A stretch of DNA of 64,000 nt from Patescibacteria group bacterium (lineage in GTDB: Bacteria > Patescibacteriota > Minisyncoccia > Phycocordibacterales > Phycocordibacteraceae). The notes beneath the pieces are model-generated. The model had not been told where the DNA came from and did no database searches. It saw only the letters and a program-made list of their open reading frames with translations. A program made the position numbers and the translations under genes. This document shows positions 23,239 through 52,149 of this stretch, in pieces (the first letter of the stretch is position 1; each line of letters starts with the position of its first letter). Location of the stretch: positions 418,859 through 482,858 of the forward strand of contig JAIETW010000001.1 of NCBI GenBank assembly GCA_019744845.1. Reading direction: 5' to 3'.

Positions 23239-24030
23239 ATGAAAATCGTCTCCTGGAATGTAAACGGCATACGCGCAGTACACAGAAAGGGCGTATTTAT
23301 GCCCTTTCTCAGGGACTTGAAACCCGATATCCTCTGTCTTCAAGAGACAAAGGCCGAAAAGGGTCAGGCAGAGATAGATCTCCAGGGGTATGAAGAGTTC
23401 TGGCACTCCGCCGAAAAGAAGGGATACAGTGGTACGGCAATATTCACTAAGACCACCCCTGTGAACGTACTCTTTGGTCTCCCAGAGGACCTAGTAAAGA
23501 AGTACGGTCTCGCAGACGATGGATACGGGAACCCTAATAAGGAGGGGCGCATTATCACCATGGATACGGGACAAATATATGTAGTGTCAGTATATACACC
23601 GAACGCAAAGGACGACCTTTCTCGCCTTCCCCTCCGGCACAAGCAGTGGGATCCAGCCTTTTTGGAGTATATGAAACGCCTAGAAGCTGAAAAACCCGTT
23701 GTTTTCTGCGGTGATTTGAACGTTGCCCATACTCCAGACGATCTTGCCCGTCCTAAGGCAAATGTAGGGGTAAAGGGATTCACCAACGAAGAGCGTGAAG
23801 GCATAGACCATATAATAGAGGGAGGCTTTGTGGACACCTTCCGCCTCTTCACCGAAGGGAACGGCCACTACACCTGGTGGAGTCACTTCGCACAGGCACG
23901 TGAACGCAATGTGGGTTGGCGCATTGATTACATTTTCGTTTCCAAGAAACTTGCTTCAAAGGTAAAGAAAGCAGAAATTCATGCAGACGTTCTAGGTTCA
24001 GATCACTGCCCTGTCTCCATCACGCTATAA
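23239..24030 (+). CDS. xth: Exodeoxyribonuclease III / AP endonuclease
   Basis: SWNVNGIRA, LQETK, GDLNVAH, GWRIDY, SDHCP. Confidence 0.96.
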   Translation: MKIVSWNVNGIRAVHRKGVFMPFLRDLKPDILCLQETKAEKGQAEIDLQGYEEFWHSAEKKGYSGTAIFTKTTPVNVLFGLPEDLVKKYGLADDGYGNPNKEGRIITMDTGQIYVVSVYTPNAKDDLSRLPLRHKQWDPAFLEYMKRLEAEKPVVFCGDLNVAHTPDDLARPKANVGVKGFTNEEREGIDHIIEGGFVDTFRLFTEGNGHYTWWSHFAQARERNVGWRIDYIFVSKKLASKVKKAEIHADVLGSDHCPVSITL

Positions 24031-24092
24031 AGGACATATAGGACACTATCCACACCCTTGTCCTTTACGTATGTCCTTTATACGACTATGAT
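24028..24092 (+). promoter_or_regulatory. Promoter (TTTACG-N17-TATGAT) embedded in four AGGACA motifs around a DnaA-box-like CTATCCACA
   Basis: TAAAGGACA 24028, TATAGGACA 24037, CTATCCACA 24046, TGTCCTTTA 24059 and 24072. Confidence 0.55.
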
Positions 24093-24098
24093 CGTACT

Positions 24099-24310
24099 TA
24101 GGTTCGCTCTTTGCCAGCTCTTTCATCAGCGCAGCACGTGCTCTCCTTCCAACGATTTAGGGCGTATCCCTCTAATAAAGATCGGATAGGAGGTTCCACG
24201 TGAAAAGCGAGATACCAGGAAGCCGTCGGGTAACCAACACTCCTGAGGATCATACAAAAATTGCCCCCGCCCCTTATTTTTGGTCCTCAATATGGTTCGA
24301 CGGCTTTTTG
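24099..24310 (+). ncRNA. Candidate structured ncRNA between convergent xth and cca
   Basis: Promoter upstream, two GCTCTTT boxA-like words, two long stems, final stem AAGCCGTCG/CGACGGCTT followed by a T-run. Confidence 0.5.
24192..24207. promoter_or_regulatory. parS-like site 1
   Basis: GGTTCCACGTGAAAAG versus consensus TGTTTCACGTGAAACA. Confidence 0.65.
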
Positions 24311-24323
24311 CTTTATTACCCCT

Positions 24324-24339
24324 AGTTTCACGTGAAAAG
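24324..24339. promoter_or_regulatory. parS-like site 2
   Basis: AGTTTCACGTGAAAAG. Confidence 0.72.
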
Positions 24340-24341
24340 CC

Positions 24342-25805
24342 CTAGGATACGTGATGTTTCTTGAGGATCTCCTTAAGAGCCTCTTCCTCCTTTTCTTCCT
24401 TCTTTTTACGGCCTGCCTCCCCCAAATCCTGCAGATCCTTATCTGAAAGCTTTAGGTACTCTTCAGTCTTTGCATCCAGATATTTCTCTGTATTCTTCTT
24501 AGGATCCTCAAGAACCTCCTCTAGGAGGGCGTTTAGGATCCATCCTATCTTTGGTCCTGGTTCCACGTGGAACTGGCTCATGAGGCGGTTCCCATCCGTC
24601 TTTAGCATACCTACAGATATAGGGTCACGGAGCGCCTCTTCCACCATAGCTTTGTACTTACGGAACCTGAATGGCTGTTCCTTAGGGCGCCCGGTACCAA
24701 TACGGTCACAAACCCGGAGATTAAGGAGATCTTCAATATTCTCCTCTCCTACGTTCCGTATAGTTCTACGGACGGCCGAAAGGGTGACCTGATCCGGATC
24801 TGAGAAAAACATGTGCCATCGCACCATTTTGCTAACCTTCTCTATGGTTTCACGTGAAAACTTGAGATCCTCTAGTGCTTTCTTAGCCACACGACCTCCA
24901 ACCACCTCATGCCCGTGGAACGTCCAGTCCTTCTTCTCATCAGACCAGCGGCGGGTCTCAGGCTTAGATATGTCATGAAACAGGGCAGAGAGACGGAGAT
25001 TTAGGTCCCATCCCTTATCCGCAGCATGCTGAAGACTTCGTAGATTGTGCTCAAAAACGTCGTAGCTGTGTGCCTGGTTTTGATCCACTCCTATGCCACG
25101 TGGAAGATCAGGAGCAATATACTGCAAAAGTCCGAGCTGCTGACAAAGCACAATTCCCATCATCGGCTGATCTGATTTCAAGAGCTTTACAAACTCATCC
25201 CGGATACGTTCCTTTGAAATATGGCCTAGATTATGGCTCTTTTCTTGAATTCCTGCTGCCGTTTCTGCATCAAGGGCAAGACCAAGCTCTGCAACAAAAC
25301 GAACCGCACGCATAAGGCGAAGGCCATCTTCTTCAAAGCGCTCTCTGGGATCCCGTACAGTCCTGAGCACCCTAGACTCAATGTCCTTTTGTCCTTTATA
25401 AGGATCTACCAAATGTCCTTTAGATTCATCGTACGCAATGGCGTTAATCGTGAAGTCTCTCCGAGCAAGATCCTCATCAAGACTCTGGCCAAATGACACC
25501 GCATCAGGACGGCGCTTGTCGGTATATCCGGACTCCGTGCGATAGGGAGTTACCTCAATCACGCGAAGTGTTTCATCCTCTGTTTCTAGCTTCACCCCCA
25601 CGGTTCCAAAGTCATTCTCATAGAAGGACTCGGGGAAGACTTTCTGAATCTCCTCTGGGGTGGCGTTGGTCGTTACATCCCAATCCTTGGGCTTCCGGCC
25701 CATGAGCATATCGCGTACACAACCTCCAACCAGGTACGCTTCAAAGCCCGCGTTCCGGAGAGCATCAGCGACTGTACGCACTTCAATCGGAACACTCATT
25801 TGCAT
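24342..25805 (-). CDS. cca: CCA-adding tRNA nucleotidyltransferase / poly(A) polymerase family with HD domain
   Basis: VGGCVRD…DWDVTT, RRDFTINA, EDGLRLMRAVRF, ERIRDE, HDISK. Confidence 0.9.
   Translation of the reverse strand: MQMSVPIEVRTVADALRNAGFEAYLVGGCVRDMLMGRKPKDWDVTTNATPEEIQKVFPESFYENDFGTVGVKLETEDETLRVIEVTPYRTESGYTDKRRPDAVSFGQSLDEDLARRDFTINAIAYDESKGHLVDPYKGQKDIESRVLRTVRDPRERFEEDGLRLMRAVRFVAELGLALDAETAAGIQEKSHNLGHISKERIRDEFVKLLKSDQPMMGIVLCQQLGLLQYIAPDLPRGIGVDQNQAHSYDVFEHNLRSLQHAADKGWDLNLRLSALFHDISKPETRRWSDEKKDWTFHGHEVVGGRVAKKALEDLKFSRETIEKVSKMVRWHMFFSDPDQVTLSAVRRTIRNVGEENIEDLLNLRVCDRIGTGRPKEQPFRFRKYKAMVEEALRDPISVGMLKTDGNRLMSQFHVEPGPKIGWILNALLEEVLEDPKKNTEKYLDAKTEEYLKLSDKDLQDLGEAGRKKKEEKEEEALKEILKKHHVS
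24559..24574. promoter_or_regulatory. parS-like site 3 (inside cca)
   Basis: GGTTCCACGTGGAACT, 14-bp perfect palindrome. Confidence 0.75.
24846..24861. promoter_or_regulatory. parS-like site 4 (inside cca)
   Basis: GGTTTCACGTGAAAAC. Confidence 0.72.
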
Positions 25806-25936: not shown

Positions 25937-26287
25937 ATGAGTGACCCAGAATCATTTGGCCCAGCAACCCCTCGCGCAGAAAGGGAGCTGCCACGAAGCA
26001 CGCTTGTAGAGTGCATACAGAAAGCACGCAAAGAAGTGGGTCTCCACGTACTTGATGCGGGGCGGATTGGCGCTGCACTTGCGGAAGCATCTAAACCCTT
26101 TGCAAAAGATTTGAAACGTTCTGCGACCCAGGGTCGTGAATACATATATCCATCAGCAGACATGCAGCGCGCCGTACTCCGCGCAGCAGTACTTGAAGGG
26201 CCAAGTGCACGATATCTCACTGAAGATGAGAAAGAACGTCTCCTCACTGCGGCATTGCGACTGCTCGCTCACAAGCAGGGCGCATAA
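25937..26287 (+). CDS. Hypothetical protein
   Basis: 116-aa ORF, TATACT 9 nt upstream of ATG. Confidence 0.6.
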   Translation: MSDPESFGPATPRAERELPRSTLVECIQKARKEVGLHVLDAGRIGAALAEASKPFAKDLKRSATQGREYIYPSADMQRAVLRAAVLEGPSARYLTEDEKERLLTAALRLLAHKQGA

Positions 26288-51357: not shown

Positions 51358-52149
51358 GTTTGTATCTTTCTGACTATTCTGAACATCTAGGCGCTTTGCC
51401 TCTTCCCACGCAAGCTCATAAATCTTCTTCATCGCGTGTGCAATCTCCGCACTTTCTATAATAATGCCGAGTTTTTCTCTCCAGGAAGCAATCATTACTT
51501 TGTTGTCATAGATTTCAATATCGGGAGAGATATCAAACTTATCTTTTGGTATGACTGCCGCTTCACGCATTTCCTCTTTGTTTTTTTTCATTCGTTCAAG
51601 AGTAAGCGGTGTTTCCGGAACAATTCCACGTGCAAGAATTCCCTTCTCAGCACGCCGTTCATAGTATTTAGGAAAATAGTCACCGAGTGTACCGTGCATG
51701 TCTTCATATGCAGCGTAGGCATAGATCGGCATTGTTGCAGTTAGAGTGTCTTCATACACTTGCTTCAATCCCTCTATGCCTTCATAAAAACGAATTTGTG
51801 GTCTACTCCCCACACGATGTAGAGCGGTAAGTTCTGGAACGAGACTCCGAGCTTTATCTATATCGTCCTGTGTTTCTTTAAGACGCTTATCAAGCAGGGC
51901 GAGCAGAGAAGTTGGAGACTCAGCGACATATTCCTGTCGGGGTTCTTTTCCTGAGATGCTTACAAGCCCTTTCCCTGCCAAAGAAGAGAGGACATCATAC
52001 CCTGTCGTGCGATTTATATTTGCTTCACGAGAAACCTTAGAAACAGTACTGCGCCCTAACTCTAGGAGGGCGATATACACATTCGCTTCTTTGAGCGAAA
52101 GACCGAAAGAAAGCAGCCTTTCTACTACCGTTTTTGACTGATTTTTCAT
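51340..52149 (-). CDS. TrmB-family transcriptional regulator 3
   Basis: GLSLKEANVY…RTTGY, PQIRFYEGIEG, YELAW; TTGACA-N18-TATACT promoter 7 nt before ATG. Confidence 0.88.
   Translation of the reverse strand: MKNQSKTVVERLLSFGLSLKEANVYIALLELGRSTVSKVSREANINRTTGYDVLSSLAGKGLVSISGKEPRQEYVAESPTSLLALLDKRLKETQDDIDKARSLVPELTALHRVGSRPQIRFYEGIEGLKQVYEDTLTATMPIYAYAAYEDMHGTLGDYFPKYYERRAEKGILARGIVPETPLTLERMKKNKEEMREAAVIPKDKFDISPDIEIYDNKVMIASWREKLGIIIESAEIAHAMKKIYELAWEEAKRLDVQNSQKDTNKKPAA

Follow-up and report, generated by a model that had tools for sequence, protein, structure and literature searches.

A predicted stand-alone structured RNA gene between xth and cca in a small Patescibacteria genome

Introduction

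C-rich small RNAs of the RsaE/RoxS type in Firmicutes pair with Shine–Dalgarno (SD) regions, and RNAs of the CsrB/RsmY type sequester protein by means of a GGA word. CcnA, as described in PMC8959179, is a 182 nt RNA whose gene, with DnaA boxes, is located at the origin; a CCCC loop serves it to bind GGGG. The boxA consensus is given as GYTCTTTAANA in PMC5725501, and the Bacillus sequence AUGAUCUUUGAAA is reported to be bound by NusB in PMC13753749.

The locus described here combines a C-rich loop with boxA-like words. It lies in a window of 64 000 nt (C1:418859-482858; C1 is contig JAIETW010000001.1 of assembly GCA_019744845.1) of a 760-kb CPR (Patescibacteria) genome that is 99% complete. These bacteria form a large and mostly uncultured group, a description of whose RNA regulation was not found in the literature searched. 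The RNA itself appears to be undescribed, in that it has no Rfam family and no paper on it was found in the literature searched, although motif tables in supplementary files may list it; the main text of PMC8040213 contained none of the CPR terms that were looked for. New here are the genus-wide count, the covarying pseudoknot and the order-wide boxA-like word, together with the exclusion of 6S RNA by way of a family linked to ndk and the case against pairing with SD sequences.

Locus and promoter

The gap between xth and cca spans 24031-24341 (window coordinates throughout, unless a contig is given). The following features were located in and around it.

23239-24030, + strand: xth, exodeoxyribonuclease III (TIGR00633 above cut-off), the upstream neighbour of the RNA gene
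24028-24045, + strand: TAAAGGACA box plus the variant ATAGGACA, putative DNA sites conserved 5' of the DnaA box in relatives
24046-24054, + strand: DnaA box CTATCCACA, conserved among relatives and absent from the list of the earlier note on this DNA
24059-24080, − strand: two TGTCCTTTA boxes, overlapping the −35 element and the spacer
24064-24092, + strand: predicted sigma-70 promoter (−35 TTTACG, 17 nt, −10 TATGAT; predicted start 24099-24101)
24100-24310, + strand: predicted non-coding RNA of ~210 nt (own promoter, model, fold)
24193-24208, no strand: parS-like site GTTCCACGTGAAAA, which makes the 3' arm of domain 1
24325-24340, no strand: second parS-like site, outside the RNA
24342-25805, − strand: cca, a gene of the CCA-adding-enzyme family (its top NCBIfam matches are CCA enzymes, under their cut-offs)

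Of 80 related loci, 63 have xth and cca in convergent orientation. The box at 24046-24054 is of the TTATCCACA type.

The earlier note had given the gene a promoter of its own. In this genome alone the promoter match was at chance level (1 found, 0.8 expected); it is nevertheless judged to be real because it is conserved in relatives. A DnaA-like box followed by TGTCCTTTAC was present in 51 of 81 loci (the anchored set), and in 49 of these 51 a TAnnnT −10 box followed at the correct spacing of 16-18 nt past the −35 hexamer (control offsets, 0-6/51). Purines occupied both positions of the predicted start (48/49 and 49/49 loci). With plain blastn only the promoter could be recovered in relatives (this genome aside, in 9 of 60). 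Across the order the promoter pattern was found in 78 of 151 genomes, chance hits included; since a reversed control rang in ~51 genomes (hand count), the pattern is unspecific by itself, and adjacency to cca and a DnaA-box filter were used instead. Of the first 30 order-wide pattern loci 21 adjoin cca, and the filter retained 64 of the 78 loci, with 48 of the loci chosen by eye for a second box.

TGTCCTTTA is the inverse of TAAAGGACA. Six of the 11 exact copies of TAAAGGACA/TGTCCTTTA in the genome fall within 3.6 kb at the RNA locus, one lies near dnaA and four belong to a C2 gene (C2:583-1350), within or adjoining it. This gene, which encodes a 256-aa protein, itself holds four TAAAGGACA sites. 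The protein has a C-terminal DeoR-type helix–turn–helix (weak match, E 0.048), and this winged-helix protein is a candidate, chosen by position only, for the binder of the promoter boxes. Control of the RNA by an AGGACA-binding factor, as put forward in the earlier note, is likewise suggested by site position only. Further TGTCCTTTA boxes lie within the cca coding sequence (25382-25422), where they encode SKGH and YKGQKD; next to them are two parS sites (24560 and 24847) that are likewise coding. The stretch 25937-26287, in the tRNA-Arg–lysA interval, holds a 116-aa ORF with no Pfam or NCBIfam match.

The parS-like sites form a cluster of four in 24193-24860 (at 24193, 24325, 24560 and 24847); the sole further match with two mismatches genome-wide is weaker and lies at 52022. 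ParB is encoded in the genome, and parB, at C1:201796, is far from the cluster. The RNA had been said to contain parS. A parS-like site does lie within it at 24193, but the site is not essential: it is found inside the RNA in 65 of 88 homologues and is incidental to it.

The possibility that the locus is itself oriC was dropped; a single DnaA box is found here, and a cluster of such boxes with an AT-rich stretch is found at dnaA–dnaN, ~46 kb off. The cluster follows dnaA at C1:489787-489961 (RNA at C1:442958), and oriC is likely to be at C1:489845-490070, between dnaA and dnaN. Between the latter interval and the minimum of the cumulative GC skew (C1:467042, flat around) there are ~22 kb, and the parS cluster is ~46 kb distant from it.

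Structure and strand

The predicted RNA consists of a 5' segment with two short words and two domains, as follows.

24106-24123, + strand: two boxA-like words GCUCUUU, at 24106 and 24117, 11 nt apart (consensus GNUCYUU)
24135-24202, + strand: domain 1, an interrupted rod (CACGUG, CUCCU/AGGAG, UCC/GGA) topped by a small hairpin
24152-24171, + strand: the small hairpin AGGG-CGUAU-CCCU with a predicted pseudoknot (covariation)
24220-24309, + strand: domain 2, with an outer stem and U-run (intrinsic-terminator-like), a C-rich 5' bulge ACACUCC and a 9-bp inner stem
24253-24280, + strand: open G-poor loop, GCCCC...YCC (anchored search, 36 sequences)

The GCTCTTT words, the two hairpins and the T-run described in the earlier note were all found in the sequence. 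In hairpin 1 the CACGTG arms are 24135-24140 and 24197-24202, and AGGG/CCCT is also paired. Hairpin 2 has an outer stem AAGCCGTCG (24220-24228 / 24298-24306), to which AACCA/TGGTT is added, an inner stem TGAGGATCA (24244-24252 / 24281-24289) and a T-run to 24309. The AAAAA/TTTT pairing that had also been proposed within hairpin 2 was not conserved, and this region is an open loop of 22-31 nt. In the loop comparison, for which GCC served as the search anchor, C was found past GCC at +3 in 35, at +4 in 31 and at +9 in 31 of the 36 sequences. About one homologue in three (by eye) has its terminator as a distinct hairpin farther downstream, and the inner stem is retained even in these.

The stretch 24099-24311 folded with −67.9 kcal/mol (z = −3.07; 1/200 shuffles equally good), and z was below −2 in only 15 of 34 homologue folds. 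Partial pairing was predicted for the boxA-like words, with a mean probability of 0.44-0.69. Among 74 homologues, 44 have a 5' extension longer than 30 nt, which in several of them can pair with itself or with the 5' words (by eye). No conserved ORF was found in the RNA; the longest ATG frame ranged over 0-77 codons among 36 homologues and was absent in five of them.

The RNA is assigned to the + strand because of the orientation of the promoter, the U-run and a bias towards G-U in the inner stem (9 G-U versus 2 A-C pairs); the outer stem carried no strand signal (8 versus 9). Counting against this strand, 31 of 34 sequences folded to a lower energy on the reverse strand, which is attributed to base composition, as expected for a C-rich strand. 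A transcript arriving from cca would encounter the outer hairpin before domain 1, which it would not reach if stopped there. A sequencing run flagged as 'probably DNA' (share 0.05) contained one 245-nt contig, from one study, that covered 24078-24316 with 13 differences and started upstream of the −10 box; it is given no weight here. The locus is very probably a real RNA gene, predicted to stand alone on the + strand, and we infer that it is transcribed.

Distribution and covariation

A covariance model of the RNA was built from 34 loci. It found one strong copy in 83 of the 87 genomes of the genus (training genomes partly included), none in 29 genomes of the sister genus and a single weak match among four genomes of a third genus; elsewhere in the order, over a further 150 genomes, no score exceeded 19.4 bits, which came from short fragments. 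Outside the genus the fold is lost, but the promoter and the GUUCUUU word recur. Retention in a 0.76-Mb genome and in nearly all genomes of the genus points to a core function. This genome, in which SRP, Rho and Hfq were not found, keeps the RNA in addition to a 6S-like RNA, tmRNA and RNase P RNA. Other families have different conserved-looking RNAs at the same xth–cca position, namely a central-bubble rod, a multi-hairpin form and a ~110-nt form beginning at GTTCTTT.

A homologue search with covariation analysis had been suggested as a check on the earlier reading, and the hairpins do covary. Counts were taken from 88 distinct aligned rows. In the outer stem and the small hairpin both-side changes occurred at all ten pairs; these pairs belonged to the model, so the counts are biased toward them. 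RNAalifold on a MAFFT alignment recovered no more than 10 pairs, since the inner stems have diverged too far to be aligned, and the inner stem was therefore checked by an anchored search with a swap control. With its own 3' arm it reached a score of at least 8 in 33 of 36 sequences, and with swapped arms in 151 of 1260 combinations; the 5' arms differ in 28 of the 33.

An unbiased mutual-information scan raised pairs absent from the model, e.g. C24150-G24185 in the rod. A further pair absent from the alignment model, G24154-C24163, joins the ACG 5' of the small hairpin to its loop; it was G-C in 77, A-U in 7, C-G in 1 and other in 3 of the 88 rows, the three exceptions resembling a one-column shift. 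Swaps at this pair fell on ~7 separate branches of a tree built without those columns. The neighbouring pair C24153-G24164 was C-G in 85 of 88, and a third pair, A24152-U24165, was not conserved (39 A-U, 45 unpaired). A compact pseudoknot of two pairs, which the earlier note did not list, is predicted.

The promoter and the boxes were conserved much further out than the fold. They would be so if selection acted on the DNA and on the act of transcription, namely on a promoter under DnaA/TAAAGGACA control and a terminator working in both directions, set in the parS cluster, with the RNA as a by-product. The parS sites within and next to the unit fit such an arrangement, and so do the many outer stems with an A-run before and a T-run after them, at which cca transcription could also stop. 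The compensated helices in 83 of 87 genomes, the covarying pseudoknot pair and the G-U bias would, however, be left without an explanation, and the DnaA-box cluster of the oriC type is ~46 kb away, after dnaA. A mere by-product is accordingly regarded as improbable.

Relation to known RNA families

At gathering score, Rfam 15 identified four tRNAs only in the window. E-value scans of the gap together with 30 homologous loci (10 and 20) gave nothing near threshold at the RNA, so that the proposed Rfam check left it without a family. The statement that SRP, tmRNA and RNase P signatures are lacking was also borne out. The genome has its own tmRNA and RNase P RNA elsewhere, above cut-off (92.7 and 117.5 bits, respectively). 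For SRP RNA there was no RF00169 match, and neither a small SRP RNA nor Ffh/FtsY was found in the 99% complete genome; the large SRP model was covered by the window scans only. 5S rRNA was dropped for want of an Rfam match and with the 5S of the genome located elsewhere, and T-box, Y RNA, HDV-like ribozyme and preQ1 were dropped as they had no Rfam match.

As RF00013 gave no 6S match in this genome, 6S was the first guess for the RNA. Within the class, RF00013 had matches in 8 of 151 genomes, a single one of them above cut-off, and four of the five convincing matches adjoin ndk. A 6S model made from those five found matches in 63 of 151 genomes of the order, and 10 of the 12 best that were inspected adjoin ndk. 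The same model matched in 10 of 40 genomes carrying the xth–cca RNA, in all ten beside ndk. In this genome the core matched weakly (C1:391105-391176, 21.9 bits, own 6S model), giving the following feature.

C1:391086-391216, − strand: 6S-like RNA, near ndk

RNAs of this family are compact (~125-170 nt), have the core GGGAG...CACCCAC and usually lie between ndk and a membrane-protein/beta-CASP nuclease pair. The lineage model therefore places 6S near ndk and not at xth–cca, with both RNAs co-occurring. This 6S-like family, which is missed by Rfam, is a second and directly usable result.

That the xth–cca RNA might still be a highly diverged housekeeping RNA (6S, SRP RNA, tmRNA or RNase P RNA) was suggested by its single copy with its own promoter and terminator, by the failure of Rfam to find either 6S or small SRP RNA in the genome and by the Kaiserbacteria-like homologues, which fold as a central-bubble rod. 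Against this stand the location of tmRNA and RNase P RNA elsewhere, the failure to find Ffh/FtsY, the separate 6S-like RNA near ndk, both in this genome and in relatives that carry the xth–cca RNA, and the 5' and 3' ends, which form no closing stem in this genus. This reading has been largely refuted and is considered very improbable indeed.

Pairing with mRNA

The earlier note had the C-rich loop pair with G-rich targets. At 501 start codons GGAG occurred at −16..−4 in 11 cases and in 27 in the control window, i.e. it was depleted. Words resembling −10 boxes were strongly enriched before the same starts (ATACT, 72 versus 3.8 expected), which suggests many leaderless messages; TATACT words directly precede many start codons. 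The anti-SD CCUCC was absent from the 3' end of the 16S rRNA (C2 ~25650), and Hfq was not found in the genome. The lack of CCUCC is in line with PMC9297842, which reports that an anti-SD was detected in 48% of Parcubacteria. As neither an SD signal nor an anti-SD nor Hfq was found, pairing with or occlusion of SD sequences in the manner of RsaE is unlikely as the mechanism, and with messages that are apparently largely leaderless and free of SD sequences the textbook mechanism of C-rich sRNAs is unlikely to apply.

Targets were searched for among 700 start regions and five stable RNAs. The top duplex of the 700 was at the start of a beta-CASP nuclease gene, where the G-rich stretch consists of Gly-Gly-Ala-Gly codons; it contains large bulges and reached −33.4 kcal/mol, compared with −29.6 for the best of the mid-gene controls. 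This candidate was traced in 25 of 30 genomes. A first covariation test gave p = 0.011 with 6 of 25 loop windows misplaced; a repeat, with 4 of 25 loop windows still misplaced, gave p = 0.12 when free and 0.83 within clusters, so that the best candidate target failed the test.

Pairing outside SD sequences would make the RNA a trans-acting, Hfq-independent sRNA whose open C-rich loop pairs with G-rich mRNA stretches in a CcnA-like fashion, the words only aiding its synthesis. The loop stays open and G-poor with its conserved GCCCC...YCC, its stem is retained even where the terminator is separate, and of 47 order-wide transcripts 12 have YCUCC in their terminator hairpin (5 in the control window). 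There is also the precedent of Caulobacter CcnA, whose CCCC loop binds GGGG according to PMC8959179. The genome shows no SD use, though, the top duplex did not covary across genomes and the loop fold is restricted to one genus. Such pairing is on balance unlikely, if a serious second choice.

boxA-like words and protein binding

The G, C, U and U of word 1 were invariant in 88 of 88 sequences. Of 64 order-wide transcripts 43 carry GTTCTTT, where 3.0 would be expected, and only 1 has it on the antisense strand; the word is often repeated, and its distance from the start varies. The word persists beyond every helix. It corresponds to the opening seven letters of the boxA consensus, and its variants resemble the 5' half of the rRNA boxA of this order (positions 2, 3 and 5). 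The 5' half of boxA (GYUCUUU / GNWCYUU) is thus present in the RNA. The 3' half is AANA in E. coli and GA(A/C)A in the rRNA leaders of this order; GNWCYTTGA[AC]A was found in 0 of 88 genus RNAs and GNWCYTTG in 45 of 88, and the full GNWCYTTGA[AC]A form occurred in 6 of 64 order-wide transcripts. For comparison, the strict rRNA-leader boxA pattern was present in 13 of 30 leaders.

The 16S and 23S genes are unlinked, with rRNA promoters at C2 ~24020 and ~8385. Each of the two is preceded by a DnaA-like box and comes with GYTCGTTGA, a variant boxA; DnaA-like/AGGACA words lie near just 3 of 30 other 16S starts.

The genome codes for NusB and for a SuhB-family protein. Rho was not found, so that a role in antitermination is not obvious. 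Protein binding is favoured because neither SD signals nor Hfq, on which many similar RNAs rely, were found. The reading that we place first, tentatively, is that of a stand-alone RNA of ~210 nt on the + strand that acts by binding protein, NusB–S10 being the leading candidate; loop pairing is ranked below it, and the transcriptional by-product comes third. The predicted promoter, helices and pseudoknot pair, the words and the single copy are established at the level of sequence comparison, and we infer a protein partner and regulation in the following terms.

Transcription of the + strand would start at the gene's own sigma-70-type promoter, which is conserved. Proteins would bind mainly at the tandem GNUCYUU words, where the boxA-binding pair NusB–S10 might load on the nascent RNA or might later be sequestered, the RNA serving as a decoy. 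The pseudoknotted rod would lend the RNA a stable core, and the open C-rich loop would offer a further surface for binding. Synthesis could be linked to the chromosome cycle by the DnaA box and the TAAAGGACA boxes over the promoter, within the parS cluster. The words, however, are without the 3' half of the rRNA boxA of the lineage and are predicted to be partly paired, and a 5' extension able to pair with them is present in 44 of 74 homologues. A more specific version, in which a free-standing NusB–S10 decoy under DnaA/TAAAGGACA control couples ribosome production to the chromosome cycle in bacteria where Rho, Hfq, SRP and SD signals are not detected, and the 5' extension switches the words on and off in some species, is speculative and rather improbable. 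The covarying pseudoknot and the boxA-like words supply precise mutations and a binding assay.

Comparison with known systems

The RNA resembles the RsaE/RoxS-type sRNAs of Firmicutes in its C-rich open loop and intrinsic terminator and differs in having no Rfam match and in a genome without SD signal or anti-SD. With the CsrB/RsmY type it shares a short repeated word at variable positions in a fast-evolving RNA; here the word is GUUCUUU and not GGA, in 1-4 copies only. It is like 6S RNA (RF00013) in size, in its single copy and in having its own promoter, and unlike it in being without a closing stem, a central-bubble rod or the GGGAG...CACCCAC core.

Compared with CcnA of Caulobacter crescentus (PMC8959179), the RNA is similarly ~200 nt long, with its own promoter, one or more DnaA boxes, a place in a chromosome-cycle region and a C-rich loop. 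Unlike CcnA, it lies ~46 kb from the predicted oriC, in a parS cluster, has no Rfam match and no target found, and belongs to a host without SD signals.

From the boxA leaders bound by NusB–S10 (rRNA leaders, the suhB leader and CRISPR operons; PMC5725501, PMC13753749) it is set apart by two words 11 nt apart with no GA(A/C)A tail (0/88), by standing alone with no downstream gene, by its pseudoknotted domain and by a genome in which Rho was not found. It shares with them the 5' GYUCUUU near the start of an untranslated RNA, and both NusB and a SuhB-family protein are encoded in this genome.
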